A stretch of 64,000 nt of DNA from Labilithrix sp. (GTDB lineage Bacteria; Myxococcota_A; Polyangia; Polyangiales; Polyangiaceae): contig JBGAFW010000002.1 in NCBI GenBank assembly GCA_044227045.1, positions 67,457 through 131,456 on the forward strand, given 5' to 3'. This document shows, piece by piece, positions 23,663 to 44,320 of this stretch; positions within the stretch are counted from its first letter, which is position 1; each line of letters starts with the position of its first letter. Below the pieces are notes generated by a model, which made no database searches, had not been told where the DNA came from, and saw only the letters and a list, made by a program, of their open reading frames with translations. Both the position numbers and the translations under genes were made by a program.

Positions 23663-24511
23663 ATGGCTCGCCTCCATCGCGTCTTTTCGCAGCTTGGATG
23701 GCTGCTCGTGGTCGCGCTGACGCTTCACCCAACGTCAGCGTTTGCGGCTCCGACTGCGCCTGCGCCGCGATCTGGATCGACGATGGACCGGGACCACGCG
23801 CCGGCGCCCGCGCCGGCGTCGACGAGCGATCCGAGCCGTGATCGCGCCCTCGACTTGTTCGAGCAGAGCATGCGATCGTACCGCGAGGGACGTTTCCAAG
23901 AGGCCGTCGACAAGCTGATCGAAGCAAGGAAGCTGAAGAGCGAGCCAGTCCTCCTCTACAACCTCGCGCGAGCGTACGAGGCGCTCGGGCAGTCGAAGGA
24001 GGCGGCCGACGCGTACGCGCAGTATCTGAACGAAGAGCCCAACGCGCCCGATCGCAAGGCGATCGAAGGCCGGATCACGACGCTTCGCGCGCAAGCCGCG
24101 CAAGCCGCCGAGCTCGCCGCTCGCCAGTCGTCGCCACCCAGCGGCGAGGACGGATCGAAGGAGAAGGACACCAAAGACAAGGACGTCGTGGCGGAGCCGC
24201 GCGAGTCGACGACGTCGGTGGTGCCGTGGGTCGTCGTCGGCGCAGGCGCGCTCACGATCGGCGCGGGCTTCGTCATCTACGGCTTGGCGCAAGGCAAGCA
24301 CGACGACGCCACGCAGGATCCCGTGCAGCTCTCGGCGGCGGGAAAACAAGACTCCGCCGAGGGCCTCGCGACCGCCGCGACGGCGACGATCTTGGCAGGC
24401 GCCGTCGTGACCGTCATCGGCGCTGCGTGGGTCGTCGTCCGGATGACGTCGTCGTCTTCCTCCACGAGGGCGTCGGCGCGCTTCGACCCTCCCTTGCGCT
24501 GGACGTTCTGA
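23663..24511 (+). CDS. Secreted/membrane TPR-repeat protein (paralog of the 34675 and 44343 proteins)
   Basis: Signal peptide. A TPR-like block (LLYNLARAYEALGQSKEAADAYAQYL). A TM segment near the C-terminus (VVPWVVVGAGALTIGAGFVIYGL). Confidence 0.6.
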   Translation: MARLHRVFSQLGWLLVVALTLHPTSAFAAPTAPAPRSGSTMDRDHAPAPAPASTSDPSRDRALDLFEQSMRSYREGRFQEAVDKLIEARKLKSEPVLLYNLARAYEALGQSKEAADAYAQYLNEEPNAPDRKAIEGRITTLRAQAAQAAELAARQSSPPSGEDGSKEKDTKDKDVVAEPRESTTSVVPWVVVGAGALTIGAGFVIYGLAQGKHDDATQDPVQLSAAGKQDSAEGLATAATATILAGAVVTVIGAAWVVVRMTSSSSSTRASARFDPPLRWTF

Positions 24512-25701: not shown

Positions 25702-25770
25702 AAACCGCCGCCCGGCTCCCGTTTGCTGCCGCGGTTGTGCTCTTCGGGGCGCCGTGGCAAAAGAATCACC

Positions 25771-27087
25771 ATGTGCACGTGCCATAGCGAGCTGTACACC
25801 AAACGTCGTCGCGCGTTCCTCGAAGCCATTCACGCCAAGGGCGATGACGGCGTCGCGGTCTTCGCGTCTGCCCCGGTCTTCACGCGCAACAACGACGTCG
25901 AGCACGAGTACAGGCAAGACTCCGATCTCTTCTACCTGACGGGCTTCGCCGAGCCGGGCACCGTGCTCGTGCTCGACGCGAAGGACAAGAAGTCGACGAT
26001 GTTCGTCCGCCCGCGCGATCCGGAGCGCGAGACGTGGGACGGACCGCGCGCAGGCGTGGACGGGGTGAAGGAGCATTTCGGCGCAGACGAGGCGTTCACG
26101 ATCGACAAGGTCGCCGAGGAGCTGCCGAAGCTCTTCCAGAACAAGAAGCGTCTCTATTACCGCCTCGGCCTGAACCGCCAGATGGACGACAAGATCCTCG
26201 AAGGGATCGATCGCGCGCGCGCCCGCGCGAAGCTCGGCTACTCGTGGCCGGTCGAGATCGTCGACCCCGGCACCATCCTCCACGAGATGCGCCTGTTCAA
26301 GAACAACGAAGACCTGAGCACGATGCGCAAGGCCGCCGACATCACCGCCGAGGCCCACCTCCGCGCGATGAAGGCCGCGAAGCCCGGCATGCACGAGTTC
26401 CAGGTCGAGGCGATGCTCCTCGAGACGTTCCGCATGCACGGCTCGGAGCGCCCCGCGTACGGGAGCATCGTCGGCTCCGGCAACAACGCGACGATCCTCC
26501 ACTACCGCCTCAACAACCGAAAAATGGAGGACGGCGACCTCCTCCTCATCGATGCGGGCTGCGAGTACGACTACTACGCGAGCGACGTGACGCGCACCTT
26601 CCCGATCAACGGGAAGTTCTCGAAGGAGCAGCAGGCGATCTACGAGCTCGTCCTCGACGCGCAAGAGGCAGGCATCGACAAGACGCGCAAGGGCAGCTCG
26701 CTCGAGCAGATCCATGCGACGTGCGTCGACGTCATCACGCGCGGCCTCGTGAAGCTCGGGTTGCTCACCGGTGACGTCGAGCAGCTGATCAAGGACGAGG
26801 CCTACAAGCCGTTCTTCATGCACAAGACGAGTCACTGGCTCGGCATGGACGTCCACGACGTCGGCAACTACTACGTCGGCGGCAAGGCCCGCGCGCTCGA
26901 GCCCGGCATGGTGCTCACGGTGGAGCCCGGCATCTACATCTCGAAGGACTACGACAAGGTCGCGCCCGAGTGGCGTGGCATCGGCGTCCGCATCGAAGAC
27001 GACATCCTCGTCACCGAGGGCGATCCGGACAACCTCACGCGATCGATCCCGAAGAAGGTCAGCGAGCTCACGAGCGCGATGGCCTGA
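25771..27087 (+). CDS. pepP: Xaa-Pro aminopeptidase (M24B)
   Basis: Pita-bread fold motifs (DAGCEYDYYASDVTRTFPING, HGTSHWLGMDVHDVG, EPGIYI, GIRIEDD). Confidence 0.85.
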   Translation: MCTCHSELYTKRRRAFLEAIHAKGDDGVAVFASAPVFTRNNDVEHEYRQDSDLFYLTGFAEPGTVLVLDAKDKKSTMFVRPRDPERETWDGPRAGVDGVKEHFGADEAFTIDKVAEELPKLFQNKKRLYYRLGLNRQMDDKILEGIDRARARAKLGYSWPVEIVDPGTILHEMRLFKNNEDLSTMRKAADITAEAHLRAMKAAKPGMHEFQVEAMLLETFRMHGSERPAYGSIVGSGNNATILHYRLNNRKMEDGDLLLIDAGCEYDYYASDVTRTFPINGKFSKEQQAIYELVLDAQEAGIDKTRKGSSLEQIHATCVDVITRGLVKLGLLTGDVEQLIKDEAYKPFFMHKTSHWLGMDVHDVGNYYVGGKARALEPGMVLTVEPGIYISKDYDKVAPEWRGIGVRIEDDILVTEGDPDNLTRSIPKKVSELTSAMA

Positions 27088-27139: not shown

Positions 27140-28126
27140 GTGGCGCAGACTCTCTCCGAGCTGAAGAGCGCGTTCATGACGCACCTCGAGTCGGAGAAGC
27201 ACGCGTCACCGAACACGGTGCTCGCGTACGGCCGCGACCTCGACGCGATGCTCTCGTTCCTCGAGGAGCGCACGAAGGACCGCCCGGGGCCGCGCCGCGG
27301 CCGATCGCAGCTCGACGTGTACGTGCTCCGCGGGTGGCTCGGCGATCTCGCGCGCACCTGCAAGCCCACGAGCGTCGCGCGGAAGATCGCGAGCGTGCGC
27401 GCCTTCTGCCGATGGATGAAGCAGAAGGGGCACGCCGAGACGAACCCCGCCGCCGAGCTCGCGCTGCCGAAATCGCGACGCGAGCTGCCGATGTTCTTGT
27501 CGGCCGAGGACGCCGCGCTCGTCATCGAGGCGCCCGACGCCGACAACACAGGCGCGCTCCGCGCCGAAGAGGCCGTCGCGCTTCGTGATCGCGCGCTGCT
27601 CGAGCTGCTCTATGCCGGCGGTCTTCGTGTCTCGGAGGCCTGCGGTCTCGACCTCGGCAGCCTGTCGCTCTCGGAGCGGACGGTCCGCGTGATGGGCAAG
27701 GGACGCAAGGAGCGCATCGTCCCGATCGGATCGAAGTGCGAAGAGGCGCTGAAGGCCTACCTCGCCGTGCGCGCCGACCTCACGCATGCGCGCACGCTCT
27801 TCCTCGACAAGCACGCCGTCTTCGTGTCGACGCGTGGCCGCCGGCTCGGGCCGCGCGCCGCGCAGCTCATCGTTCGCCGCTACGGCCTCCTCGGCGCAGG
27901 CCGCGCCGACCTGCATCCGCATGCGCTTCGCCACACGTGCGCGACGCATCTCCTCGACGGCGGCGCCGACCTCCGCGCGATCCAGGAGATGCTCGGCCAC
28001 TCCTCGCTCTCGACGACCCAGCGCTACACCCACGTCTCGGTCGCGCACCTGCTCTCGGTCTACGACGCCGCCCACCCGCTCGCGCGCACGCGCGGAAAAC
28101 AAGAAGAGAAAAACAAGAAGCGCTAG
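27140..28126 (+). CDS. xerC: Tyrosine site-specific recombinase, XerC/XerD family
   Basis: N-terminal SAM-like domain. Catalytic R...HxxR...Y (HPHALRHTCATHLL, LGHSSLSTTQRYTHV). The genomic context is housekeeping, not phage. Confidence 0.8.
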   Translation: MAQTLSELKSAFMTHLESEKHASPNTVLAYGRDLDAMLSFLEERTKDRPGPRRGRSQLDVYVLRGWLGDLARTCKPTSVARKIASVRAFCRWMKQKGHAETNPAAELALPKSRRELPMFLSAEDAALVIEAPDADNTGALRAEEAVALRDRALLELLYAGGLRVSEACGLDLGSLSLSERTVRVMGKGRKERIVPIGSKCEEALKAYLAVRADLTHARTLFLDKHAVFVSTRGRRLGPRAAQLIVRRYGLLGAGRADLHPHALRHTCATHLLDGGADLRAIQEMLGHSSLSTTQRYTHVSVAHLLSVYDAAHPLARTRGKQEEKNKKR

Positions 28127-28808: not shown

Positions 28809-31286
28809 ATGCTACGCGCGGCCATGCGCCTCTTACTTGCCCTCGGTGGCGCCGCCGTCGCGGCTCTGCTCGTAGCGCTTCTCGAAGCGCGGGCAGTGTC
28901 TGCGGCTGCGTCCGACGCGGGGCAACAGATCCTTCCGCCATTCGGCGCGCTTCTCACGAGCGAGCTTGGCATCCTCTCGCCGGTCACGCTCCTCATCGGA
29001 GGCGCGATCGGTGTCCTCACGATCTTGCTCCAGCCAAGCGGCGCGGTGAGCCCGTTTCGATCGCTTGGCGCGCTCCGCGAGGGAGATCTCCTCATGAGGC
29101 TGCGCGTCGCGGCCGCCGCGCCGATCGCGATCTTCGCGGCGTTCGGTTGGTGCGTGACGTGCGCCCACGTCGCGCGCAGCGCGATGGCGACGGGCAAGCC
29201 GGCCGAGGCGGGGCTCTCGGTGGGCATCGGCGCCGTCGGCGCGCTCATCGCGGCGGTGGCGGTGGGGCTCGCGTCGTTGCCGCTCGTACGGCGGATCATC
29301 GTCGTCGGGAGCGAGTCGATCCCGCAGCTGCTCGATCCGGCGCTCACCGGGAGCGTCGCGCTGATCATCGTCGTGATCCTCTTCGGCATCGGCATCCTGA
29401 TCGGTGACACGAGCGGCTCCGAAGGTGGTCTCCTCGGTATCTTTGGTGTGCTCAAGCGACCCGAGCTCGATCTGCGACCGCTCGCGAACGCCAGCCTCCT
29501 CGCCCTCGGCGCCTACGTCGCGCCGATCGCGCTCGCGCGGAAGGCGCCGCCTACGCCAGAGCCGCCGCAGGCCGACAAGGCGCCGGATCTTCGCGCCCCG
29601 GGCTTCGCGGCCCTGGCGATCGGGCTTCACCTCCTCTTGGCGGTGCTGTGCGGCTACGCGTCGTCGCACATCGCCGAGCCGATCACGGTCGTTCGTGGGA
29701 TCGAGAAGAGCGCGCCGCTCGGCAAGACGTCGCTCGCGCTCCTTCGCAAGCTGACCGATCACGACAAGGACGGGTACTCGGCGAGCTTCGCCGGCGGGGA
29801 CTGCAACGACAACGACAAGAAGATCAACCCGAACGCGCTCGACATCCCCGGCAACGGGATCGATGAGGACTGCTCGGGCGCCGACACGCCGCTCGAGATC
29901 ACGCCGCCGGTGAACCCGGTCATCGCGGATGCGGGGCCTCCGTCGACGCGTCCGAAGAAGACGTTCAACGTCATCTTGATCACGGTCGACACCCTCCGTC
30001 CGGACCTCGGCTTCATGGGCTACAAGCAGCAAGGCACGTCGCCAAACCTCGACAAGGTGGCCGAGAAGGCGACTGTGTTCGAGCACGCGTATTCGATGGC
30101 GTCGTACACGGGCAAGGCGGTGGGGCCGATGCTCATCGGGAAGTACCCGAGCGAGACGCTCACCGACTTCAGCCACTTCAACACGTACGCCGAGGGCAAC
30201 ACGTTCGTCGCCGAGCGCGCGAAGGAGGCGGGCATCCGCACGTTCGCTGGGATGTGCCACTGGTACTTCCGAAACCCGACGGGCCTTCGCCAAGGCTTCG
30301 ACGTCTGGGACACCTCCGCGATCCCTCCGGGGATGGGCGACAACGACAACGCGATCACGAGCGATCGCATGTCGGAGCTCGCGCTGAAGCTCCTCTCTCG
30401 TCCGGAGAACGTCGGCGAGACGACCACCGGCCTTCCGTCGAACGATCAAGGAAGCGACGCGGGCTCACCATCGCCCGCGCCGTCACTCTCCGCGAGCGCA
30501 GCGCCGAGCGGCGCCGACGCGGGCAAGCCGGAGGGAGCAAACGGCGAGAAGAACAAAGACGGCGAGGACAAGCCGCATCGCTTCTTCGCGTGGTTTCACT
30601 TCTTCGACCCGCACGCGCAGTACGTCCCGCATCCCGGCGCCCCGGAATTTGCGGGCGGAAATGGGCCTTCGCGACCGATCTACGATCAAGAGGTCTGGTA
30701 CACGGACAAGCACATCGGCAAGGTCCTCGACTACATCGCGTCGCAGCCGTGGGGTGAAGACACGGCGATCGTGATGACGGCCGATCACGGCGAGGCGTTC
30801 TACGAGCACGGCATGCTGTGGCATGGCTCGGAGATCTGGGAGGAGCTCATTCACGTTCCGCTCTTCGTCTATGTCCCAGGCGCCGAGCCGCGACGGGTGT
30901 CGCAGAAGCGATCGCACATCGACATCGTCCCGACGATCATGGAGCTGCTCGGTGTCCCGCTCCCCGAAGAGGCGAACGAGCTCCGCGGCAAGAGCCTCCT
31001 CACCGACGTGTACCTGCCGAAGGGCACCGAGCCCGAAGAGCGCGACGTCTACGTCGACATGCCGCAAGGTCCGTTCAACGATCCGAAGCGCGCCGTCATC
31101 TGGGGACCGACGCCAGGGATGAAGCTCATTCACTCGGGCGGATATCGCTACCAGCTCTTCGATCTCGCGGCCGACCCCGACGAGAAGAAGGACCTCTCGA
31201 GCGACAAAGAGAAGCTCCAGTCGGCGATCGCGAAGATGAGCTCGATCCGCGGTCGCCTGAAGGAGATCGAGGTCAAGCCGAAGTAG
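28809..31286 (+). CDS. Membrane-anchored sulfatase / alkaline-phosphatase-superfamily protein (LtaS/MdoB-like), with a MopE-like Cys/Asp metal-binding motif
   Basis: Multi-TM N-terminus. DGYSASFAGGDCNDNDKKINPNALDIPGNGIDEDCSG is MopE-like. The AP-superfamily core follows (VILITVDTLRPD, TADHGEAFYEHG). Confidence 0.75.
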   Translation: MLRAAMRLLLALGGAAVAALLVALLEARAVSAAASDAGQQILPPFGALLTSELGILSPVTLLIGGAIGVLTILLQPSGAVSPFRSLGALREGDLLMRLRVAAAAPIAIFAAFGWCVTCAHVARSAMATGKPAEAGLSVGIGAVGALIAAVAVGLASLPLVRRIIVVGSESIPQLLDPALTGSVALIIVVILFGIGILIGDTSGSEGGLLGIFGVLKRPELDLRPLANASLLALGAYVAPIALARKAPPTPEPPQADKAPDLRAPGFAALAIGLHLLLAVLCGYASSHIAEPITVVRGIEKSAPLGKTSLALLRKLTDHDKDGYSASFAGGDCNDNDKKINPNALDIPGNGIDEDCSGADTPLEITPPVNPVIADAGPPSTRPKKTFNVILITVDTLRPDLGFMGYKQQGTSPNLDKVAEKATVFEHAYSMASYTGKAVGPMLIGKYPSETLTDFSHFNTYAEGNTFVAERAKEAGIRTFAGMCHWYFRNPTGLRQGFDVWDTSAIPPGMGDNDNAITSDRMSELALKLLSRPENVGETTTGLPSNDQGSDAGSPSPAPSLSASAAPSGADAGKPEGANGEKNKDGEDKPHRFFAWFHFFDPHAQYVPHPGAPEFAGGNGPSRPIYDQEVWYTDKHIGKVLDYIASQPWGEDTAIVMTADHGEAFYEHGMLWHGSEIWEELIHVPLFVYVPGAEPRRVSQKRSHIDIVPTIMELLGVPLPEEANELRGKSLLTDVYLPKGTEPEERDVYVDMPQGPFNDPKRAVIWGPTPGMKLIHSGGYRYQLFDLAADPDEKKDLSSDKEKLQSAIAKMSSIRGRLKEIEVKPK

Positions 31287-31295
31287 CGCGCGCCG

Positions 31296-32054
31296 TCACG
31301 CGCGATGGATCCGCGCGAGCGCAGCGACGTCGTGGAGCGACTCGAGCACGAGATCCGGGCCGGCGGCGAGGACGCGGTCACGCTCGGCGATGCCGGGCAC
31401 AGCGATGGTGAAGCAGCCGGCGGCGCGTCCGGCGAGGACGTCTTGCGGTCCGTCGCCGACCATCCACGTCTTCGCGGCGTTCGCGCCGAGCTCCGCGATG
31501 AGCGCGTGAAGGCCGTCGGGCGAAGGCTTCATCGGTCCGTCACCGCCCGCACGAACGAGACGTCCAGGAAAGAGTGACGTGAGCGACAAGCCCTCGAGGA
31601 CGAGCAACGTGAGCATGCGCGGCTTGTTCGTGATGATCCCCTTTGGGACCTCGATCGCGATCGCCTCGGCCGCTCCAGGCATCAACGTCGTGTGGACGCA
31701 CGGCCTCGCCGCGTAGGCGCGCTCGAAGATCGACCTCGTGTGGTCGACGAGCGCGTGGTCGTCGCTCTCCGCGAGAGGTCGCGAGGCGACGCCGTGAGAA
31801 TGCTCTCTCGAATCGGGGGCGGCCAAGGCTCGCGCGACCAGCGCGCGGGCGCCGTCTCCGATCATCGGAAGGATGGCCTCGAGGGCCAAGGTCTTCCGAC
31901 CCATCTCGGCAAGCGCGGCGTTCAGCGCCTCGGCGATGTCACGCCGTGAGTCCACGAGCGTTCCATCGAGATCGAAGAGCAGCGCCTCACATGACGGGAC
32001 TCGGACGCCCCCTCGAGAGACCCCATCGGATGGGGAAGGGGCATCGACACCCAA
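31296..32054 (-). CDS. HAD-family hydrolase (phosphoglycolate-phosphatase-like)
   Basis: Motif I (LLFDLDGTLVDS), motif III (K), motif IV (MVGDGPQDVLAGRAAG). Confidence 0.7.
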   Translation of the reverse strand: MGVDAPSPSDGVSRGGVRVPSCEALLFDLDGTLVDSRRDIAEALNAALAEMGRKTLALEAILPMIGDGARALVARALAAPDSREHSHGVASRPLAESDDHALVDHTRSIFERAYAARPCVHTTLMPGAAEAIAIEVPKGIITNKPRMLTLLVLEGLSLTSLFPGRLVRAGGDGPMKPSPDGLHALIAELGANAAKTWMVGDGPQDVLAGRAAGCFTIAVPGIAERDRVLAAGPDLVLESLHDVAALARIHRA

Positions 32055-32092: not shown

Positions 32093-32719
32093 TCAGGCCG
32101 CCGTAGAATACGTGTCGAGCTCGCGCTTTTCGAGCAGTGTTCGAAGGCGCGTACGTGCTCGGTGAAGGCGCGACCGCACAGCGCTCTCTGTGATCGAGAG
32201 GCGATCGGCGATCTCCTGAAGGCCGAGGTCCATGTGGTAGTGGGCGATGACGACGTCGCGGTAGTCCTCGGGGAGCTCGCCGAGCGCATCGCGCACCTTT
32301 TCGTCACGCTCGCGCGCCGTCACACCAAGGTCGGCGTCGACGTCGGTGTCGTTCATCGCCGGGAGCATCGCGAGCTCCTCCCAATCGAGCCCCTCGATGA
32401 AGCGGGCGCGATGACGACGGCGTGACCGCATGAGCATGAGGGCTTCGTTCGCAGTGACGCGGAAGAGCCAGGTCGAAAAGCTCGCTTCGGCGCGGAAAGA
32501 CCCGAGACGCCGGACGATTTGCATCATCGTAGCTTGGAGGAGGTCGCGGCGATCTTCGTCACTCACCGGGTAGCGCAGGAGCTGTCGCTCGACGTGCGGC
32601 TTGATCGTCTTCAGCACATGATCGAGGGCCGTGCTGTCACCGGAGACCGCTGCATCGAGGATGTCACGCTGGATTACGAAGGCCATTCGAACGAGTCCTT
32701 TCGAGGTGAGAGGCTCCAT
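32093..32719 (-). CDS. ECF-family sigma factor (start uncertain: 32719 or 32686)
   Basis: Region 2 (LLQATMMQIVRRLGSFRAEASFSTWLFRVTANEAL) and region 4 (DYRDVVIAHYHMDLGLQEIADRLSITESAVRSRLHRAR). Confidence 0.7.
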   Translation of the reverse strand: MEPLTSKGLVRMAFVIQRDILDAAVSGDSTALDHVLKTIKPHVERQLLRYPVSDEDRRDLLQATMMQIVRRLGSFRAEASFSTWLFRVTANEALMLMRSRRRHRARFIEGLDWEELAMLPAMNDTDVDADLGVTARERDEKVRDALGELPEDYRDVVIAHYHMDLGLQEIADRLSITESAVRSRLHRARTRLRTLLEKRELDTYSTAA

Positions 32720-33076
32720 TGCGATGGTCATGCCGTCGACCCAAGGGCGGGTCATGGACGGACGGGCTGCCAAATCCCCCAATGATTTTCGCGGCCGTCT
32801 CCACGCCTGCGGTTGTTTGGGCCTGTAGGGATTCCGACAGCTGAAGCCGGTCCCAACAGACAGGTCGATGTGCGTTCCGACAAATCGACCGCACCGGTTT
32901 TTTTTTGGTCGGACGCCTTCCGCGGAGCCACGCGATGCTTAGGGCACGAGAGCGCTGCGGGCGCACGAGGTGCCACCTCGATGATGGATGTGCGCCGGCC
33001 GCGGTAGAACCTTCTCGTTTTCTCTCGGTTTTCTTGCTTGGAGGCGGCCCTCCACCAACGCTACGCTTTGGCTCTG

Positions 33077-34678
33077 ATGGCGGCGAAGCTCGCGCGATCG
33101 CAGCGGACTGCTACGCGGGGATCCATCCCCGACGTGGGACGGTCGACGCTCAAGGTCGGTGACCTGCTCGCCAGCAAGTACCGCGTCGAGCGCGTGCTCG
33201 GCGAAGGCGGCATGGGCGTGGTTGTCGAAGCCTATCACGAGCTTCTCGATCAACGCGTCGCGGTCAAGCTCCTCTACCAAGACATCGCCGACCGTGAAGC
33301 GCAGTCGCGCCTCCTGCTCGAAGCGCGCTCCGCGGCGAAGCTCCAGAGCGATCACGTCGCGCGCGTCATCGACGTCGACGTCGGGCCGGACGGATTGCCC
33401 TTCATTGTCATGGAGCTGCTCGAGGGCTCTGATCTCTGCCAGATCGCCGATGCGCGCGGTGCGCTGCCTCGATGGTTGGTTGTAGATTACATGCTTCAGG
33501 CGCTCGAGGGGCTCGCGCACGCGCATGGTCGCCAGATCATCCATCGCGATCTGAAGCCGTCGAATCTCTTCCTCACCAACCGCCCGGACGGAACGCAGAT
33601 CATCAAGATCCTCGACTTCGGGATCTCGAAGTCTTCGGGTGATCCGGGAGATCGAAGGCAAGCGCAGCTCACCGGCGGGCGCAGCGTCCTCGGCTCGCCG
33701 CCGTACATGTCACCGGAGCAGGTACGAAGCCCGAAGAGCGTCGATCACCGCACGGACATCTGGTCGCTCGGGATCTGCATGTACGAGCTCCTTACGAACT
33801 CGATGCCGTTCGGCGGCGACGAGCTCCAAGAGACGTTCGCGCAGATCCTCGAGAAGGAGCCCACGCCCATTCGTGCGCTCGTCACGGGCGTCCCGGAAGG
33901 CCTCGAGCAGGTCGTGATGAAGTGCCTCGCCAAGAACCGCGAGAATCGCTTCAGCGACGTGGGCGAGCTCGCCAAGGCGATCGTTCCGTACGGCTCGGGC
34001 ACGTGGATTCAATCGGCCGATCGCGTGCAAGCGACGCTCGCGCGTGCGCTGATGGAAGACCTCACGAGCGGCACGCGTCTCCGCGGACCGTCCGCGCCCT
34101 CGTCCGATCGCATCCCGATCCCGTCGTCGCGTCGCCTCGACTCGATGCAGCCCGAGCTCACCGGCACAGCGAGCACCGTCGCGCGCCGCTTTACCGTCTT
34201 CGAGTCGAAGAAGCGCTGGATCCTCGGCGTCGCGGCCGTCTCGGCGCTCGCAGGTCTCGGGCTCATCGGCGTCGGCGTCATGAAGTCCCAAGCGGTCGCG
34301 CCGGGCGCCGAGCTCGATCCGAGCGCGTCGGGTCGCCCGAGCGAGCCGCCGGCCGCCGCGGTCGATCCGTCGACCGTCACGACCGTCACGCCTACGCCCA
34401 CGGCTCCGAGCCAGCCGGCGATGGTCTCCGTCGAGAACGATCTGCCTTCGATGCCCACGAACGCGACCGGCACGGTGATCGGCGCGTCGTCCCCAGGCAC
34501 GAACACGCCCGCCGCCGCGACAGGCTCGGCGAAGCGCGGAGGCGCGGCTCCCACGCTCCGTGCTCCGCCGCCTCCCACGACGAAGAAGCCAAGCAGCAGC
34601 GGAGCGACACCGTCTGCCGCGGGTGGCTCGAAGCCTGGCTTGCCACCAGGTCTTCCGCAAAATCGCTCGGGTCAATGA
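33077..34678 (+). CDS. Ser/Thr protein kinase
   Basis: GEGGMGVVVEA, VAVKLL, IIHRDLKPSNLFL, DFGISK, SPEQ. Pro/Thr/Ala-rich C-terminus. The ATG at 33077 (MAAKLARSQ) is the first in-frame ATG. Confidence 0.8.
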   Translation: MAAKLARSQRTATRGSIPDVGRSTLKVGDLLASKYRVERVLGEGGMGVVVEAYHELLDQRVAVKLLYQDIADREAQSRLLLEARSAAKLQSDHVARVIDVDVGPDGLPFIVMELLEGSDLCQIADARGALPRWLVVDYMLQALEGLAHAHGRQIIHRDLKPSNLFLTNRPDGTQIIKILDFGISKSSGDPGDRRQAQLTGGRSVLGSPPYMSPEQVRSPKSVDHRTDIWSLGICMYELLTNSMPFGGDELQETFAQILEKEPTPIRALVTGVPEGLEQVVMKCLAKNRENRFSDVGELAKAIVPYGSGTWIQSADRVQATLARALMEDLTSGTRLRGPSAPSSDRIPIPSSRRLDSMQPELTGTASTVARRFTVFESKKRWILGVAAVSALAGLGLIGVGVMKSQAVAPGAELDPSASGRPSEPPAAAVDPSTVTTVTPTPTAPSQPAMVSVENDLPSMPTNATGTVIGASSPGTNTPAAATGSAKRGGAAPTLRAPPPPTTKKPSSSGATPSAAGGSKPGLPPGLPQNRSGQ

Positions 34679-35709
34679 GATCTCTCGCGCGGACGCTCAC
34701 CCTCGCCGCTGTCTCCTCGTCTCTGATCCTCGGTAGCGGCGTCGTACACGCGCAGGACAAGGATCAAGACGCCGAGCGCCTCTTTCGTGAGGGGCAGAAG
34801 CTCATGGAAGAGCGGCGCTACGGCGACGCGTGCCCGAAGTTCGAGGCGGCGTACCGGAAGGATCAGCAGCTCGGCACGTTGCTGAACCTCGCCTACTGCC
34901 ACAAAGAGCAAGGCGCGACGTGGCAGGCGTGGCTCGAGTTCAAGGACGCCGAGATGAAGGCGACCGAGCTACGCCGGAGCGACCGCAAGGAGTTCGCGCG
35001 CCAGAGGATGACGGAGCTCGAGAAGGAGAAGGCGCTCACGCGTATGGTGATCGAGCCCACGACGAAGGTGGAGCTCACCGAGGTGCTCGTCGAAGACCGC
35101 CGCATCCCCGAGGCGGAGAAGAGCGTCCCGTTTGCGGTCGAGCCAGGTCGAGAGCGCAAGGTCACGTTCCGCGCGAAGGGCAAGAAGGACAAGGTCCACT
35201 TCGTCAGCGTGTCGAAGAGCGACAAGCCGATGAAGGTCGCCGTCCCGGACATGGTCGACGAAGAGAAGGCGCCGCCTCCTCCTGCTGTGGTTGATCCGCC
35301 GCCGCCGCCGCCGCCGACCCATCAAGACGTGCGTCCCGTCGAGCCGCCGAAAGAGAAGAGCGACGGCTCGACCCAACGGGTCCTCGCCTATGGCCTCGGC
35401 GGGCTCGCGGTGGTGGGCATCGCGGTCGGGACGGTCGAGGGCCTCGCCGTCATCAACAACCCTTGCTCGAATCAGACACCCGAAGAGAAGGCAGGCACGA
35501 AGCCGTCGCCTTGCACACCCGACGAGAAGTCGAAGGGCGACACCGCATCGCTCGTCGCGACGATCTCGTTCGCGGCTGGCGGCGCCGCGCTCGTGGGCGC
35601 CCTCATCTTGTATTTCACCGCTCCGAGCAGCGACGCGAAGACGGGCAAGGGCTTTCACGTCACGCCAGAGATGGGTGTCGGTTGGGCCGGATTTCGCGGC
35701 GCGTTCTGA
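34675..35709 (+). CDS. Kinase-coupled signal-TPR-beta-domain-TM protein (paralog of the 23663 and 44343 proteins)
   Basis: Its ATG overlaps the kinase stop (ATGA). Signal peptide MRSLARTLTLAAVSSSLILGSGVVHA. TPR-like block (LLNLAYCHKEQGATWQAWLEF). A P(8) run. C-terminal TM segment. Confidence 0.65.
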   Translation: MRSLARTLTLAAVSSSLILGSGVVHAQDKDQDAERLFREGQKLMEERRYGDACPKFEAAYRKDQQLGTLLNLAYCHKEQGATWQAWLEFKDAEMKATELRRSDRKEFARQRMTELEKEKALTRMVIEPTTKVELTEVLVEDRRIPEAEKSVPFAVEPGRERKVTFRAKGKKDKVHFVSVSKSDKPMKVAVPDMVDEEKAPPPPAVVDPPPPPPPTHQDVRPVEPPKEKSDGSTQRVLAYGLGGLAVVGIAVGTVEGLAVINNPCSNQTPEEKAGTKPSPCTPDEKSKGDTASLVATISFAAGGAALVGALILYFTAPSSDAKTGKGFHVTPEMGVGWAGFRGAF

Positions 35710-38457: not shown

Positions 38458-39408
38458 ATGGACGCCTTCGCGCTCGCGGTCATTTTCTTCCTTCAACCGG
38501 CGCCGAGCCAAGGCGCGTACGGCACCGCACGTCCGACGGAATGCGGAATGAGCGAAGGCTTTCGAGCAGCGAACGCGTGGGAGCGCGCGAAGGAGCCAAA
38601 CCTGCGTCGCTACTGCGATCTCCTGGCGAGCGGGACGGCGAAGCTCGTCGGATCCGGGTCGGCGATCCTCGTGAAGGAGGTCCCGCAGATCGCGGACGAG
38701 GCGGACAAGCTCCTGCCTGGTCGCGCGGCGCCGAGCGTGCTGAAGGGCCGCGCGTTCCTCCGGCTGAACAAGGCCGACGACGCGCTCGCGGCGCTCAACG
38801 AAGCGAAGCGTCGCGACGAGCGCGCGCTCGACGATCCGGTCGCGCTGCTCGCGTGGGCGAGGGCCAACGCGCGAACGAACCATCTCGCGGAGGCGGCCCA
38901 AGCGTACCGCGCCGCGCTCCCGCGCACGTCGGCGCTCACCGCGCCGCTTCGCTCGGCCGCGTCGTTCGAGGCGGGGATGACGGTGATGGCGCAAGGCCCA
39001 GCCGGGATCGACGACTCGATCGCGATGTTTCGGCAGGCGCGTCGTGACGCGCAAGACGCGATGCAGGTCGCGTCCGTCGCCGGGCTCGCGCTCGCGCTCG
39101 ATCGATCGGGTCAGCGCGACGAAGCCAAGGCGATCCTCGCCGAGCGCGTGCGCGCAGACGCCAAGCCTCTCCTCGCCGACGCGCGCGTCGTCGAGTCGCT
39201 CGCCGACGCCGGCGTTCCGCACGAGAGCGACGCGCTCCTCGCGATCGCGCTCGAAGCGGTCGACGCCGCGGCGGCGCGGGAGGCATGGCGCCGCTACCTC
39301 GAAGGCGCCGGCGGCAAAGGCCCATGGGCCGATCACGCGCGCGAGCACGCGGGCGCCGCGCCGGCGAAGAAGACGCCCCCACGACCGCCGGCAGGAGGCG
39401 CGCGATGA
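38458..39408 (+). CDS. TPR-like repeat protein (N-terminal signal possible)
   Basis: Ala/Leu-rich helical repeats. Its N-terminus shares WERAKEPNLRRYCDLL with the next gene's WERAKDPEMAEAYELH. Confidence 0.55.
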   Translation: MDAFALAVIFFLQPAPSQGAYGTARPTECGMSEGFRAANAWERAKEPNLRRYCDLLASGTAKLVGSGSAILVKEVPQIADEADKLLPGRAAPSVLKGRAFLRLNKADDALAALNEAKRRDERALDDPVALLAWARANARTNHLAEAAQAYRAALPRTSALTAPLRSAASFEAGMTVMAQGPAGIDDSIAMFRQARRDAQDAMQVASVAGLALALDRSGQRDEAKAILAERVRADAKPLLADARVVESLADAGVPHESDALLAIALEAVDAAAAREAWRRYLEGAGGKGPWADHAREHAGAAPAKKTPPRPPAGGAR

Positions 39409-40421
39409 AGCGCTGGAGGCTCGGCGTCACGCTGATGGCCGCGGTCGTCGCGATCGCGACGCACGCGAGCGCCGACACGCCGCCGTCGGTGTGGGAGCGC
39501 GCGAAGGATCCCGAGATGGCCGAGGCCTACGAGCTTCACGAGGCCGTCCAGAAGCGCCTCGTCTCGACCGGCAGCCGCGATCTCGACGAGAGCGAGCTCC
39601 TTCGCGTGCTCGCGATGCTCGAGCGCGCGCAGGCGGAGCACAGCAAGAGCCCGCTCCTCCGCTTCGATCTTGCGTACGTGTACGAAGGCCTGAAAAACCA
39701 CGCGCGGGCAGGGGCGATCTACAAAGCGACGATCGCGGAGTTCCCCGATCACCCCGCGGTCGAGCGCGCGTGGCTGCGGCTCGCGTTCGCGTGCGGTCAC
39801 ACGGGCGATCACGCCTGCGAGCGCAACGCGTACATGCAGGTCCTTCGGATCGAGACCGAAGAGGTCTACCGCGCGACGCCGACGTTGAACCTCGCCGAGA
39901 CCCAGATGCACCTCGGTGATCTCAAGGACGCGATCGACGGCTACCGCGAGGCGCTTCGCATCGCAGGGCGCGTCGATCCGACACGCACCACCGCGCCGCT
40001 CGCGACGTGGGGGCTCGCCGTCGCGCTCGATCGCTCGGGCGATCGCGTCGCGGCCGAAAAAGAAGCGCGTTTCGCGATCGAGATCGAGCGATCGATGGGG
40101 ATGAGCCCGCAGCGTGGCAACGGGCTTCTTCGAAGCGCGGACGTCTTCTTCGTGCCGGCGTACGAGGTGAATTGGTACGAAGGGCTCGGCGCGATCGCGA
40201 GCGCACGCGCGGCGACGTCGTCACGCGATGCGCTCATGTTCTGGCGCTCGGCCGAGCGATCCTTCTCGGAGTACGTTCGCCAGGCAGAAGGCAAGAACGA
40301 CCGCTGGCTCCCGATCGCGAAGGCGCGCCTCGCGCAAGTGAAGGCGGAGCGCGAGCGCGCGGAGAAGGCGACGCCCCGCGAGCCGCCGCCGGAGCTCACG
40401 CCGGACGCCATTCGACTGTGA
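39405..40421 (+). CDS. Secreted TPR-repeat protein (tandem paralog of 38458..39408)
   Basis: Its ATG overlaps the upstream stop (ATGA). Signal peptide MKRWRLGVTLMAAVVAIATHASA. Confidence 0.65.
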   Translation: MKRWRLGVTLMAAVVAIATHASADTPPSVWERAKDPEMAEAYELHEAVQKRLVSTGSRDLDESELLRVLAMLERAQAEHSKSPLLRFDLAYVYEGLKNHARAGAIYKATIAEFPDHPAVERAWLRLAFACGHTGDHACERNAYMQVLRIETEEVYRATPTLNLAETQMHLGDLKDAIDGYREALRIAGRVDPTRTTAPLATWGLAVALDRSGDRVAAEKEARFAIEIERSMGMSPQRGNGLLRSADVFFVPAYEVNWYEGLGAIASARAATSSRDALMFWRSAERSFSEYVRQAEGKNDRWLPIAKARLAQVKAERERAEKATPREPPPELTPDAIRL

Positions 40422-41410
40422 CCGTCTCGAAGCGCGAAGCCGCCCGGCGCGCGAGGAGCGCCTCGGTGAAGAAGGCGCTCGACGCGGTTCGAGCGCGCGA
40501 AGACCTGCGTGCGCGACGGAAGAACGACCCGGTGGAGTTCGTCCATCGTTACGCGTCGCTGCACGATCGCGAGCTCGTCGCGCTCGTCGCGGCGAACCTC
40601 GCCTTCGGAAACGTGAAGGCGATCCGAACGAAGGTCAGCGAGCTGCTCGATCGGATGGAGCGTGTGTCGAAGAGCCCTGCGCGCGCCGCCGACGACGCGC
40701 GCGGCCTCCTGCGTGCGCTCGACGGGTGGAAGCACCGCGTGTTCCTCGGCGAGGACGTCGCAAAGCTCCTCGTCGGCGCGCGCACGCTGCAGCGAGACGA
40801 GGGCTCGCTCGGGCAAGCCTTCGCCAAGGAGCTCGCGAAGGCGGATCGGACGCTCGCGTCGAAGGAGGGAGACGACGCGGGCGGCGAAGCGCTGAAGGAG
40901 GCGCTCGCGAGCTTCTGCGATCGCATCCGCGTGGCAGGAGGCCTTCCGCTGCCCGGAGAGTCGAAGACGGGCCGGCGCGGTCCGGTGAACCTCCTCTCGA
41001 ACGCGAGGGCAGGGGGCGGCGCGAAGCGACTTCTCCTCTTCTTGCGTTGGATGGTGCGGCCCGAAGACGGGATCGACCTCGGGCTGTGGTCGGCGTGGGT
41101 GCCCGCGCGCCGGCTGCTGATGCCGGTCGACGTTCACATCCACAAGCTCTCGCGAAACCTCGGCTTCACGAAGCGCACCGACGTCTCGTGGAAGACCGCG
41201 GTGGAGATCACGACCGCTCTGGCGAACCTGGGGGGACCCGAAGCGCGCGAAGACCCCACCCGCTACGATTTTTCCCTCTGCCACATGGGCATGGTTCAGC
41301 GCTGTCCGTCGCGGAAGGACCCCGTTCGGTGCGAGGGCTGCGGTGTTCGCCCGGTCTGCATTCGCTGGGTCCAAAGAGCTATTAAGGAGGGAACAGCAAG
41401 AACGTCGTGA
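40418..41410 (+). CDS. TIGR02757/DUF2400-family conserved hypothetical protein (start uncertain: 40418 or 40466)
   Basis: The C-terminal region (LLLFLRWMVRPEDGIDLGLWSAWVPARRLLMPVDVHIHKLSRNLGF...DPTRYDFSLCHMGM) matches the DUF2400 pattern. A GTG overlaps the upstream stop (GTGA). Confidence 0.5.
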   Translation: MTVSKREAARRARSASVKKALDAVRAREDLRARRKNDPVEFVHRYASLHDRELVALVAANLAFGNVKAIRTKVSELLDRMERVSKSPARAADDARGLLRALDGWKHRVFLGEDVAKLLVGARTLQRDEGSLGQAFAKELAKADRTLASKEGDDAGGEALKEALASFCDRIRVAGGLPLPGESKTGRRGPVNLLSNARAGGGAKRLLLFLRWMVRPEDGIDLGLWSAWVPARRLLMPVDVHIHKLSRNLGFTKRTDVSWKTAVEITTALANLGGPEAREDPTRYDFSLCHMGMVQRCPSRKDPVRCEGCGVRPVCIRWVQRAIKEGTARTS

Positions 41411-41475
41411 CTTTACAGGCCACTTGATGAGATCCTACAGCCTGTCGCGTCTACGCGTTTCCTACGTTCGTGCTC

Positions 41476-42600
41476 ATGGCCGCAAAGAAACAATTTCCGC
41501 TCGATGCCCTACGAACCGACGGCTGGTTCGAGCGCATCGGTGAGGGCATCGGAAGCTTTCAGGCGCTCTGCGAGATCGTGGGCGAGCGCTTCTTTGCGTT
41601 CTCCATCATCGTCGGCGCGCGCATCACGGCCCTCACGATCGATCGCCGGAGCCCCGATCAGACGCTCGTCGACTTCGTCGTCGGCTCGGCGGAGGCGGAA
41701 GGCGATTTGGAGCCGCAGCGCCTCACCCTCGCGGACTTTCGCCGGCGTCTCGTCGGCGCGTTGCTCGTCGAAGAGGAGAAGCAGGCGCCTGCTCCCGAGC
41801 GCGACACGGACATCGAGGCGATCCAGCTCTTCGTAGGCGTTCGCTACCTCCTCCTCGCGCCGCTCTACGGCTACTCGCTCGTCACGCTCTCGCTCGAAGG
41901 CTCGCAGCCCGAGATCACCGTCCTCCACGACGGCGTCGAAGAGAAGCACGAGCTCGACGCGTTTCGGCTGCGCGTTCGCGCGCACGTCCGCGAGGAGCTC
42001 GATCGCGTCACCACCGGCGCTCGTTCGGCGATCGATCTCTCGAAGGTCGCCGACGCCGAGGCGTGCGCGCTTCGCAAGGAGTGGCCGAAGGTCATCGCGC
42101 TGCTCGGCACCTGGCCGGCGCCGCTCGCGATCTTCCTCCGAACGCCCGAAGGGCAAATGCTCGCGCCCGAAGCGCGCGCCCTGATCGCGAAAGGCCTCGG
42201 CCTCCTCGGCTCCGCGTGCGTCCACGTCGGAGAGATCGAGCAGGCGGAAGAAGTCTTCCGCATCGGCATCCAGTACGCCCAAGAAGGCATGGCCGCCGCC
42301 GAGCTTTTCCGCCGTCTCGGCGAGGCGCTCCTCTTGAACGACCGGCCTGGCGAGGCGATCGGCCCGCTCCGTCGCGCGCTGGCCTTTGGTGGACTACCGC
42401 AAGAGGTGTATCCACCTCTCGCACGTGCGTTCATCCAGCGTGGCCGCTACGTCGCGGCCTTCGCCTGCCTGAAAGACGCCCTCGCCGCGGGCGCCGCCGA
42501 GAAGGATCTCGCCGAAGACATTCGCGAAGTCGAGACGAAGCTCGGTCCTGCGCTGACGGCGTGGAAGGCGAAGCTTCTCACCGTCGACAAAGCCAGCTAG
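41476..42600 (+). CDS. Hypothetical protein with C-terminal TPR-like repeats
   Basis: Coding-like codon usage. No catalytic motif recognised. Confidence 0.5.
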   Translation: MAAKKQFPLDALRTDGWFERIGEGIGSFQALCEIVGERFFAFSIIVGARITALTIDRRSPDQTLVDFVVGSAEAEGDLEPQRLTLADFRRRLVGALLVEEEKQAPAPERDTDIEAIQLFVGVRYLLLAPLYGYSLVTLSLEGSQPEITVLHDGVEEKHELDAFRLRVRAHVREELDRVTTGARSAIDLSKVADAEACALRKEWPKVIALLGTWPAPLAIFLRTPEGQMLAPEARALIAKGLGLLGSACVHVGEIEQAEEVFRIGIQYAQEGMAAAELFRRLGEALLLNDRPGEAIGPLRRALAFGGLPQEVYPPLARAFIQRGRYVAAFACLKDALAAGAAEKDLAEDIREVETKLGPALTAWKAKLLTVDKAS

Positions 42601-42805: not shown

Positions 42806-44320
42806 ATGATGGACGTCGACTGCGGTTCCGCTCGAGATCGACTCGGGCGGACACTCGGCGGAAAATATCACCTGAAGGAGGTCCTGGGCGCAGGCGGGAC
42901 CGCCGTCGTGTATCGCGCAGAGTCCATCACCGGCGAGCGCGTCGCGATCAAGGTGCTCCACGATCACCTGAGTCGGAGCGAGGAGGTTTGTCGTCGCTTC
43001 GTTCGTGAAGGCCAGCTCGGCAACGCGCTCGATCATCCGGGCACGGTGCGCGTGCTCGACTACGGCGGCACCGAAGAAGGTTGCCCGTACCTCGTGCTCG
43101 AGCTTCTCGAAGGCGAGTCGCTCGAAGAACGGCGCGTTCGCAGCGGCGGTCGCCTCGAGATGTGGGAGACGCTCGACTTCTGCGATCAGCTCCTCGCGGT
43201 GCTCGAGATCGCGCACGCCAAGAGCATCGTCCATCGCGACATCAAGCCGTCGAACCTCTTCGTGACGAAGACCGGCGTGCTCAAGGTGCTCGACTTCGGC
43301 ATCGCGCGATTCACCGACGACACCTCTTCGGCGACCTCGACGAAGACCGGAACGATGGTCGGGACCCCGGCGTTCATGCCGCCAGAGCAGGCGCTCTCGC
43401 GGCCTCGTGACGTCGACGCGCGCACGGATATCTGGTCCGTCGGCGCGACGCTCTTCACGCTTCTCTCCGGTGAGCACGTGCACATCGCCGAGACGAGCAG
43501 CGAGCATCTCGTCAAGGCCGCCACGCTCCACGCGCGATCGCTCGCGCGCGCGCTGCCCGGCGTCCCTGCCAACGTCGAAGCGCTCGTGGCGCGCTGTCTC
43601 GCGTTCGACAAGAACGAGCGCTGGTCGTCGGCCACGACGATGCGCGTCGAGCTCACGTTCGTCCGCGAAGACCCAGGTCGTCGCATCGGCACCTCGACGT
43701 CACCTCCGCCGGAGCGTTACCCGAGCAACCCGAACATGCCGACGATCATCGGCTCGATGCGCGCGCATCAAGAGGCCGGGACGATCTCTGCGACTGGCAG
43801 CGACCCGCCGGTATCCTCGCGCGGCGCGCGTGCGATCCGAAGCGATCGTCCGAGCGATCACAGCGACGTGAACATGTCGCTCAACTCGATGACGGGCGCC
43901 TACGAGTCGCGTCCGCGTCGCAAATGGCTTCTCCCATTCGCGATCACGTCCACGGTGATGCTCGGGATCATGAGCGTCGCCGTGTTGATGCTCGCCATCC
44001 GGACCACGAACCCGTCCCAGGCCGCCACGGTCGCCGCCGCGAACAGCAACAGCGGCAACACCGGCGCGCCCGCGAACACCGACGTCGTGCCCGCGAACGC
44101 CGACGTCCCGCCCGCGATCGAGCTGCCCGCTGACCCGACCGAGACGGCGCCGAAGACGGCGCAGTCTTCTGTAGCGGCTTCACGACCTGCTTCGACAACC
44201 ACGTCGATAACGCCGATGTCTTCCGCGCGGCCCACGACGACGATCACCGTCACGACGTCACCGAAGAAGCCTGCGCCCGCGAAGGGCCCGTTCAACAAAG
44301 ACCTATATCGCCCGTTCTGA
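42806..44320 (+). CDS. Ser/Thr protein kinase with a C-terminal TM anchor
   Basis: GAGGTAVVYRA, VAIKVL, IVHRDIKPSNLFV, DFGIARF, PPEQ. TM segment (FAITSTVMLGIMSVAVLMLAI). Confidence 0.85.
   Translation: MMDVDCGSARDRLGRTLGGKYHLKEVLGAGGTAVVYRAESITGERVAIKVLHDHLSRSEEVCRRFVREGQLGNALDHPGTVRVLDYGGTEEGCPYLVLELLEGESLEERRVRSGGRLEMWETLDFCDQLLAVLEIAHAKSIVHRDIKPSNLFVTKTGVLKVLDFGIARFTDDTSSATSTKTGTMVGTPAFMPPEQALSRPRDVDARTDIWSVGATLFTLLSGEHVHIAETSSEHLVKAATLHARSLARALPGVPANVEALVARCLAFDKNERWSSATTMRVELTFVREDPGRRIGTSTSPPPERYPSNPNMPTIIGSMRAHQEAGTISATGSDPPVSSRGARAIRSDRPSDHSDVNMSLNSMTGAYESRPRRKWLLPFAITSTVMLGIMSVAVLMLAIRTTNPSQAATVAAANSNSGNTGAPANTDVVPANADVPPAIELPADPTETAPKTAQSSVAASRPASTTTSITPMSSARPTTTITVTTSPKKPAPAKGPFNKDLYRPF

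Follow-up and report, generated by a model that had tools for sequence, protein, structure and literature searches.

Introduction

In ECF43-type regulatory pairs, a kinase activates its extracytoplasmic function (ECF) sigma factor by phosphorylating a threonine (motif S/QTTA) which replaces the acidic DAED patch of region sigma2.2 (PMC8999054, PMC13147305). PknS, an ECF43-linked kinase of X. citri, carries three periplasmic tetratricopeptide repeats (TPRs) in cis that are needed for its function (PMC13147305), and kinase-associated ECF groups without anti-sigma factors have been documented (PMC7826278). In the TagQRST-PpkA system of P. aeruginosa, the activity of a Hanks-type receptor kinase is set by envelope accessory proteins encoded apart from it, among them the lipoprotein TagQ, which holds the periplasmic protein TagR (PMC7817224). 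We analyzed a stretch of 64,000 nt from contig JBGAFW010000002.1 of a soil myxobacterium, Labilithrix sp. (referred to as the window; coordinates are positions in the whole stretch) and identified three copies of a cassette, named module A, module B and the third module, in which a Hanks-type Ser/Thr kinase is encoded with a predicted exported TPR protein with a hydrophobic C-terminal part, referred to as the partner. On balance we favor, by a small degree, the reading that these modules are split receptor kinases, in which the partner, with or without a downstream lipoprotein, would act in trans as the extracytoplasmic sensor or regulatory subunit.

To our knowledge, most kinases of Polyangia myxobacteria have neither a known signal nor a known sensing mechanism. 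One report (PMC2887360) places the kinomes of these organisms among the largest in bacteria. All components of the cassette are familiar domain types, and a search of the open-access literature on PEGA domains, kinases and myxobacteria found no description of the cassette. In the searchable open-access literature no description was found either of the partner family, of the motif that ends the kinase tails or of the motif that follows the lipoprotein cysteine.

Module A resembles ECF43-type pairs such as EcfP-PknT of V. parahaemolyticus and EcfK-PknS of X. citri in having a membrane Hanks kinase beside an ECF sigma factor without an anti-sigma gene, and also in the partial loss of the sigma2.2 acidic patch with a conserved Thr nearby (DRRDLLQAT in the ECF sigma factor of the window). 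Unlike in X. citri PknS, the TPR of the window is on a separate polypeptide, together with a PEGA-like domain and a membrane anchor of its own, and the kinase retains just a disordered tail that has a motif at its end. The sigma factor also differs from ECF43 proteins in keeping both Asp residues of DxxD, so that the complete loss of DAED which is their hallmark is absent, and the link to an ECF sigma factor is confined to the A subfamily. By analogy, module A may function in the manner of an ECF43-type kinase/sigma pair to which one more subunit has been added. The likeness to TagQRST-PpkA is one of logic only, as both combine a Hanks kinase with separately encoded envelope accessory proteins including a lipoprotein; no sequence or domain relationship was found, there is neither a TagS/TagT-like ABC component nor a type VI secretion system here, and PpkA has a folded periplasmic domain of its own, unlike the kinases of modules A and B. 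Hanks kinases with fused PEGA or TPR domains, of which the third-module kinase (19920..21566) is an example, share both the types of extracytoplasmic domain and the kind of kinase with the cassettes. Modules A and B instead provide the domains in trans, on a protein whose conserved two-helix hairpin and terminal beta-hairpin were found on no fused kinase examined.

Results

The window has a G+C content of 64-70%, and the nearest relatives of its proteins are found in Labilithrix and other Polyangia (Myxococcota). A hidden Markov model (HMM) of the partner family identified exactly three members among the open reading frames (ORFs) of the window, which also encode exactly three Hanks kinases, and the two sets are paired 1:1. 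In module A, the TGA stop codon (34676-34678) of the kinase gene (33077..34678, + strand, 533 aa) is overlapped by the ATG (34675-34677) of the partner gene (34675..35709, + strand, 344 aa). In module B, the kinase gene (42806..44320, + strand, 504 aa) has its stop codon at 44318-44320 and is followed after 22 nt by the ATG (44343) of the partner gene (44343..45326, + strand, 327 aa), whose TGA (45324-45326) forms a TGATG overlap with the ATG (45326-45328) of a lipoprotein gene (45326..46342, + strand, 338 aa). An earlier, sequence-only reading of this stretch had described both overlaps (ATGA and TGATG) as well as the 22-nt gap, and all three are present as described.

To examine the linkage of kinase and partner outside the window, a genome scan with one genome per species was used, in which 476 relatives were found and 80 loci were kept. 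These loci are labelled nearly all as Labilithrix, Polyangiaceae, Polyangia, Sorangium or unclassified Myxococcales/Myxococcota, with a few generic Proteobacteria. Twenty-two of them are orthologs of module A. The other 58, with 28-39% identity to A, are paralogs or more distant relatives, and 56 of these were assessable for neighbors. A Hanks kinase gene lies immediately upstream on the same strand at 35 of the 56 non-orthologous loci, against an expectation of about 1.7 loci for this codirectional slot (flank kinase density 0.05 per kb); at six loci the kinase is divergently adjacent and at another 10 it is found within 6 kb. Among the module A orthologs the kinase is directly upstream wherever the contig allows, with a 4-nt overlap in 12 of 21 scored pairs and the other nine pairs abutting or up to 15 nt apart. 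The order of a divergent ECF gene and a kinase-partner-hisZ-like-purA run is syntenic in the window, L. luteola and Myxococcales bacterium 68-20. Distances between kinase domains and distances between partners co-vary over 33 non-A pairs (Mantel r 0.78, reached by 0 of 2000 permutations), a value partly inflated by shared species phylogeny, and this co-variation fits cognate pairs that diverge together. A recurring architecture of a kinase with a periplasmic TPR/transmembrane (TM) partner, proposed in the sequence-only reading, is thus borne out by the gene-neighborhood statistics: homologs are enriched beside kinases, and as far as genomic association goes the interpretation has support. Another Labilithrix sp. 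(locus L007, JAHCIY010000003.1, 10001..14884) has an expanded B region, in which a kinase, a partner, two small ORFs and a second partner paralog with a weak PEGA match (P0166) are followed by two tandem homologs of the 45326..46342 lipoprotein, indicating that the cassette duplicates locally.

The kinases of modules A and B were confirmed as Ser/Thr kinases by Pkinase matches with E-values of 3e-47 (161.6 bits) and 7e-44 (150.6 bits), respectively (gathering cut-off 31.7), and by the presence of the VAxK, HRDxKPxN and DFG motifs in both. They share 34% identity within the catalytic domain and are apparently ordinary Hanks-type kinases, predicted to be active. In kinase A, the kinase domain (aa 35-293) and a single TM helix (aa 381-402, 34217..34282) are followed by a 131-aa periplasmic tail rich in Pro, Ser, Thr and Ala, which ends in the peptide LPPGLPQNRSGQ (34640..34675; ortholog consensus LPxGLP(Q/R)(T/E)R...). 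Kinase B has a TM helix at aa 374-398 (43925..43999) and a low-complexity tail of 106 aa ending in NKDLYRPF (44294..44317), a form of the motif D(L/V)Y(R/K)PF that it has in common with loci L007 and L008. This organization is general: 56 partner-linked kinases have on average 1.0 predicted TM helix (range 0-2) and periplasmic tails of 111 ± 22 aa that consist for 67% of P, S, T, A and G, and all partner-linked kinases scored have such a low-complexity tail in place of a sensor domain.

Conservation of the tail is confined to the last seven residues, with 1.3-2.2 bits at positions -7 to -1 compared to about 0.3 bits at positions -20 to -8. A loose regular expression for the C-terminal motif matched 56 of 70 unique tails, whereas 2.5 matches were expected from shuffled tails. 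Examples of tail ends are LPxGLP(Q/R)(T/E)R.. in the A group, D(L/V)Y(R/K)PF in the B group, and DPTNDRF, DPL(S/A)DQR, DPLxGR(R/H) and EDDMLRSRH. The motif is retained even at loci with a gap of 16-79 nt before the partner gene, which means that it does not reflect the constraint of a ribosome-binding site. Kinases encoded divergently from the partner, or about 4 kb away from it, bear the same kind of tail.

The partners of modules A and B are homologous end to end (BLASTP, 27% identity over the full length, E 3e-17) and have the same architecture, which was delineated for partner A using the family alignment and an AlphaFold2 (AF2) model based on it (mean predicted local distance difference test score [pLDDT] 83, and above 90 over aa 30-200). 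A signal peptide (aa 1-26, VHA|Q) precedes a TPR block (aa 30-118), a PEGA-like beta-sandwich (aa 122-190), a Pro-rich linker (aa 195-230), a hydrophobic helix (aa 232-260), a loop with two Cys residues, a second hydrophobic helix (aa 282-315) and a terminal beta-hairpin (aa 328-343) ending in ...GAF. The beta-rich middle and the Pro-rich stretch that had been noticed in both kinase-linked partners correspond to the predicted beta-sandwich and linker. The C-terminal part had been described as a single TM segment; it is indeed hydrophobic but is modelled as two long, Gly-rich helices with the beta-hairpin behind them. Alignment of 67 family members identified invariant positions, namely TL(I/L)NLAxC, PG in the beta domain, several Gly residues in the hydrophobic helices and the terminal G-x-F, so that the similarity of partners A and B is not due to low complexity. 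The helices are joined by a loop (median 38 aa) with a net acidic charge, which contains exactly two Cys residues in 66 of the 67 members and is not enriched in Lys or Arg compared to its flanks. A count of hydrophobic segments gives, as a tentative prediction, an N-out/C-out hairpin, which would place the TPR-PEGA part and the terminal hairpin in the periplasm and the loop in the cytoplasm, but the composition of the loop does not clearly fit the positive-inside rule.

Neither partner has a Pfam or NCBIfam match above cut-off. Partner B shows weak Pfam matches to TPR_12 and CarboxypepD_reg (E 0.047), and TPR scores in sequence are below threshold for both partners (best E 1.9e-4), while the predicted helix-turn-helix repeats are those of TPRs. 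PEGA (PF08308) matches 18 of the 67 aligned family members (best E 2.9e-7) and CarboxypepD_reg six, partner A itself having no match; PF08308 is also marked in precomputed annotation of partner B homologs. The middle domain is called PEGA-like on the basis of this family transitivity and the predicted beta-sandwich, not of a direct Pfam score of either partner. The structural neighbors of the TPR block are small TPRs that bind proteins or peptides, including Sti1 with an Hsp70 peptide, Tah1 with MEEVD, FLU with the GluTR C-terminus, LpoP and CpoB. The likeness of the partner to LpoP, CpoB/YbgF, Sti1/Hop, Tah1 and FLU is at the fold level and limited to the approximately 90 residues of the TPR, and the structure search returned nothing matching the whole partner, its beta-sandwich or its C-terminal module.

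A profile search against 1.84 billion cluster representatives (50% identity) gave 11,278 matches at E <= 1e-30, a number that rose to 36,831 when the threshold was E <= 1e-10. Among the top 150 matches, most are 300-360 aa long and most cover nearly the full profile. The partner family, as far as such matches define it, is very large and unnamed, and has no Pfam or NCBIfam model. In an exact-sequence look-up no identical copy of partner B was found, and partner A was found in identical form solely on one 4.5-kb contig. Two metagenomic members (P0311 and P0371) have two tandem TPR-PEGA units ahead of a single hydrophobic hairpin anchor, showing that the TPR-PEGA unit behaves as a module.

Two known types of C-terminus were considered for the partner. 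In MYXO-CTERM and PEP-CTERM sorting tails, a short Cys or PEP motif precedes one TM helix near the C-terminus, and basic residues cluster behind the helix. Such a tail was ruled out by the two hydrophobic helices, the 38-aa loop with two Cys residues, the 29-33 further residues, which make up a beta-hairpin with G-x-F at its end, and the lack of a terminal basic cluster. A reading of the terminal Phe as an outer membrane protein beta-signal is not supported and is disfavored by the two-strand C-terminus after two hydrophobic helices.

A third component is encoded at many loci. The lipoprotein of module B (45326..46342) has a lipobox LAAC at residues 29-32 (Cys32), which is followed by the conserved segment CNAIAGLDD (45419..45445), and a variable body without Pfam match; none of the lipoproteins of the window has a Pfam or NCBIfam match above cut-off. 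The label 'lectin-like' that the sequence-only reading gave to the module B protein thus found no support in the Pfam search. Homologs from the same BLAST cluster follow the partners in L007 and L008. Overall, a coupled lipoprotein gene follows the partner at about 40 of the 56 assessable non-A loci, at offsets of -7, -4, -1 or +2 nt. Lipoproteins were called by pattern matching only: among the 58 non-A loci (56 readable), 31 coupled downstream genes have the strict lipobox [LVI][ASTVI][GAS]C, one or two of which look spurious, and about nine more have variants such as PGC, QGC and HGC. After the Cys, the mature N-terminus follows the pattern x-Φ-Φ-x-(G/P)-(I/L)-(D/E)-(D/E), whereas the remainder of these proteins splits into nine or more BLAST clusters that are unrelated to each other. 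Behind A-type partners lies a hisZ-like gene in place of a lipoprotein gene.

The third module differs in where its PEGA domain is placed. Its kinase (19920..21566, - strand, 548 aa; Pkinase E 2.5e-32, 112.8 bits) has a TM helix at aa 384-406 and a fused periplasmic PEGA domain (E 2e-8), and ends in the conserved peptide GFRRFD; the orthologs in L089 and L090 have the same architecture and end in GGFRRFD. Its partner (23663..24511, + strand, 282 aa) consists of a signal peptide, TPR, linker and two hydrophobic helices, with the C-terminus ...RWTF, and is PEGA-less; the same pairing of a PEGA kinase with a PEGA-less partner occurs at L089 and L090. The sequence-only reading had included this protein as a third paralog. 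The family HMM matches it in two pieces, covering the TPR and the linker/TM-hairpin/C-terminus with the PEGA region skipped (E 1.4e-11), but the relationship is remote: BLASTP against partner A was blank, BLASTP against partner B (E 4e-5) and hhalign (94% probability, 51 columns) cover only the TPR, and in a metagenome scan with the protein alone as query no relatives were found. It is near or above some TPR cut-offs (TPR_19 25.4 vs 25), and bridging homologs include P0294, which has a PEGA domain, and P0292 and P0295, which have a Cys-x-x-x-Cys loop. On these sequence comparisons, the protein was accepted as a PEGA-less member of the same superfamily as partners A and B. The start assigned by NCBI is M41 (P0241, 242 aa), and homologs keep the N-terminal signal peptide.

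The catalytic loop of the third kinase reads HRDVSPQN (21057..21080, - strand), in which Ser replaces the catalytic-loop Lys of Ser/Thr kinases, and this kinase may be atypical or weakly active. Directly downstream of it lies a gene for an FHA-domain sigma-54 activator (bacterial enhancer-binding protein, bEBP; 18416..19867, - strand, start approximate) with FHA, Sigma54_activat and HTH_8 matches, which keeps its position in L089 and L090. FHA domains read phospho-Thr, and the bEBP is likely the phospho-Thr-dependent output of the module. Directly upstream of the kinase and on the same strand, a gene for a Cys-rich putative lipoprotein is found (21594..22415, - strand; 25 Cys in 273 aa, ..LLGVAC..). 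L089 and L090 are without this gene, and the kinase abuts the partner gene there. On the other side, a lipoprotein-like gene (24514..25701, + strand, 395 aa) starts 2 nt after the stop codon (24509-24511) of the third partner. The earlier statement that a lipoprotein follows the third paralog holds for this adjacency, which is conserved in position, an ortholog of 365-369 aa overlapping the partner in L089 and L090, but the post-Cys motif is deviant; there is no detectable homology between this protein and the 45326..46342 lipoprotein. An Arg-rich ORF of 396 aa (24597..25787, + strand) was rejected as the downstream gene, being a wrong-frame artefact of the high G+C content.

In module A, an ECF sigma factor gene (32093..32686, - strand, 197 aa from MAFVIQ) is divergent from the kinase. 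The protein matches Sigma70_r2 (E 1e-10, 41.6 bits), Sigma70_r4_2 (E 4e-16, 59 bits) and Sigma70_r4 (47.5 bits), all above cut-offs. A divergent ECF gene is found at 19 of the 22 A-type loci, and also at L001-L004, while most family members, at non-A loci, have none nearby. As in ECF43-type gene contexts, a Hanks kinase is the neighbor and no anti-sigma domain was found in the neighboring proteins using Pfam and NCBIfam. The sigma2.2 motif is DRRDLLQ(A/T)T in all 20 orthologs compared to the canonical DAEDxxQE. Judged against the motifs given in PMC8999054 and PMC13147305, it has lost the inner Glu and also the Glu of QE, has an invariant Thr after the Q, and keeps both outer Asp residues. Because both Asp residues of DxxD remain, the sigma factor was not filed under ECF43 despite the two lost acidic positions and the adjacent Thr. 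The sigma factor of L074, a different ECF, has the canonical AEAEEVSQE.

Alignment of 20 orthologous ECF-kinase intergenic regions identified a conserved 21-nt element, CTGTAGGGATTCCGACAGCTG (32823..32843), with a CTGT...ACAG inverted repeat. On the minus strand it includes the sequence GGAAT (in some orthologs GGAAC), and it could serve as an operator or as the -35 box of an ECF-type promoter. A promoter-like pair, CTTGGAG - 16 nt - GCTACGCT (33037..33067, + strand), is also conserved and ends 9 nt before the ATG of the kinase gene. The conservation of this pair and of the kinase start ATGGCGGCGAAGCTCGC (to 33079) led us to take the ATG at 33077, and not the upstream TTG at 33038, as the start of kinase A, and suggests that the kinase A mRNA is near-leaderless. 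A simple sigma-70 scan found nothing at 33037..33067, and a promoter and terminator scan of 32-47 kb showed no enrichment. A HAD hydrolase gene (31296..32054, - strand) is located 38 nt downstream of the ECF gene, as well as in L002-L004.

Between modules A and B lies a run of genes for TPR proteins and a DUF2400 protein (38458..42600; ORFs 38458..39408, 39285..40421, 40007..41410 and 41470..42600, with overlapping ranges), which is syntenic in L002-L004 and L007. Two further genes (27140..28126 and 28809..31286), for a tyrosine recombinase of the XerC/D type and for a sulfatase that carries a MopE-type Cu-binding motif at its N-terminus, are syntenic with L089 and L090 and look like ordinary chromosomal genes, not like a mobile element. 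The sole RNA gene detected is a tRNA-Ser (CGA; 3083..3160, - strand), and no Rfam family reached its gathering score anywhere in the window.

Discussion

The preferred reading is a split receptor kinase. TPR and PEGA domains are ecto-domains which elsewhere are part of the kinase itself, as the PEGA domain of the third kinase and the TPRs of X. citri PknS illustrate. The kinase would supply the catalytic domain, a single TM helix and a flexible tail whose last residues form a docking peptide. The partner, exported by the Sec route, would place its TPR and PEGA-like sandwich in the periplasm and would be held at the membrane by the two-helix hydrophobic hairpin and the terminal beta-hairpin. 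As the closest folds to the TPR block include Sti1, Tah1 and FLU in complex with C-terminal peptides, the TPR is the obvious candidate receptor for the conserved C-terminal peptide of the kinase, and its groove most likely docks this peptide, perhaps with additional packing between TM helices. In the canonical three-gene form, the partner would couple the kinase to a variable lipoprotein which gives input specificity; the terminal hairpin of the partner and the strand following the lipoprotein Cys, both membrane-proximal, are plausible mates. Occupancy of the partner and lipoprotein would alter oligomerization or autophosphorylation of the kinase. We infer the interaction of kinase and partner, its surfaces, the membrane topology and the direction of regulation from the linkage, co-divergence, domain architecture and tail motifs that were observed. 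The output of module A would be the divergently encoded ECF sigma factor, presumably through phosphorylation as in ECF43-type kinase/sigma pairs, and that of the third module would be the FHA-domain sigma-54 activator; module B has no identifiable cytoplasmic output.

Several observations weigh against this reading. Five of the 56 non-orthologous loci have no kinase within 8 kb, and shared species phylogeny accounts for part of the distance correlation. The terminal beta-hairpin is present in module A partners too, where there is no lipoprotein behind them, and the ECF sigma factor of module A, with both Asp residues in place, is not a textbook ECF43 protein. The acidic loop with two Cys residues would suit a periplasmic location better than the cytoplasmic location it would have in a simple N-out/C-out hairpin. 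Finally, a single-sequence AF2 prediction for a chimera of partner residues 27-232 and the last 41 residues of kinase A had a pLDDT of 54 with the tail disordered and was uninformative on docking.

Operon linkage and co-divergence would fit equally well if the partner were a substrate or effector of the kinase, its loop being phosphorylated at the conserved Thr by helix 2 and an envelope function of the TPR/PEGA protein and the lipoprotein being controlled in this way. If the hairpin is N-out/C-out, the loop of 38 aa and the conserved G-x-T that it carries ahead of helix 2 would be in the cytoplasm, as is the kinase domain. We consider this explanation unlikely, as it accounts neither for kinases that lack a folded ecto-domain yet have a conserved extracytoplasmic C-terminal peptide, nor for the movement of PEGA between kinase and partner; in addition, the loop, acidic and with two Cys residues, is not clearly cytoplasmic, and an obvious cytoplasmic output is already at hand for module A in the ECF sigma factor and for the third module in the FHA-domain bEBP. 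It is far less probable still that the module A partner serves the divergent ECF sigma factor as an atypical membrane-bound anti-sigma factor or anti-sigma co-factor, comparable to the TPR-containing FecR-like protein of the kinase-associated group ECF267. No FecR or anti-sigma domain was matched in the partner by Pfam or NCBIfam, and since only the loop of approximately 38 aa could be cytoplasmic, this segment is too small for a sigma-binding domain of approximately 80-90 aa. The partner is, moreover, co-transcribed with the kinase and not with the sigma factor, and most family members have no ECF gene nearby. This explanation would account for the joint conservation of ECF, kinase and partner at 19 of 22 loci, and for one ECF group linked to kinases a putative anti-sigma factor containing TPRs has been reported (PMC7826278).

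The adjacency itself might be a by-product of block duplication, with the partner and lipoprotein being ordinary envelope proteins functionally unconnected to the kinase. In the genome scan the family was seen in Polyangia only, and paralogs make up many of its loci, so that one ancestral adjacency could have been copied many times. Such an origin without function appears improbable in view of the persistence of the adjacency down to about 25% identity, its maintenance in three arrangements (codirectional, divergent, and partner-first in L031), the frequent translational coupling among scored pairs, and the complementary domain content, in which a sensor-less kinase goes with a PEGA partner and a PEGA kinase with a PEGA-less partner.

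The split receptor reading can be extended, tentatively and with considerable doubt, to a three-part modular receptor amplified in Polyangia, in which the tail peptide of the kinase plugs the TPR, the beta-hairpin of the partner captures the N-terminal strand of the lipoprotein, and the body of the lipoprotein is interchangeable. If so, ligand specificity would evolve by swapping of lipoproteins around a constant core of kinase and partner. The cassette would then be a bacterial analogue of co-receptor-assisted receptor kinases and would explain how apparently sensor-less myxobacterial kinases sense.

If the partner were merely a co-transcribed envelope protein, the value of the finding would be limited to the definition of a new domain family. 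That family is very large and unnamed and is systematically encoded with low-complexity-tailed kinases, whose terminal peptide has apparently not been described before. If the partner is a sensor subunit, a third component would be added to the ECF-sigma/kinase paradigm, and the kinase tail and the segment following the lipoprotein Cys would be two new short linear motifs for protein-protein recognition in the envelope. As the missing sensor subunit, the partner would offer a testable route to the de-orphaning of hundreds of kinases.

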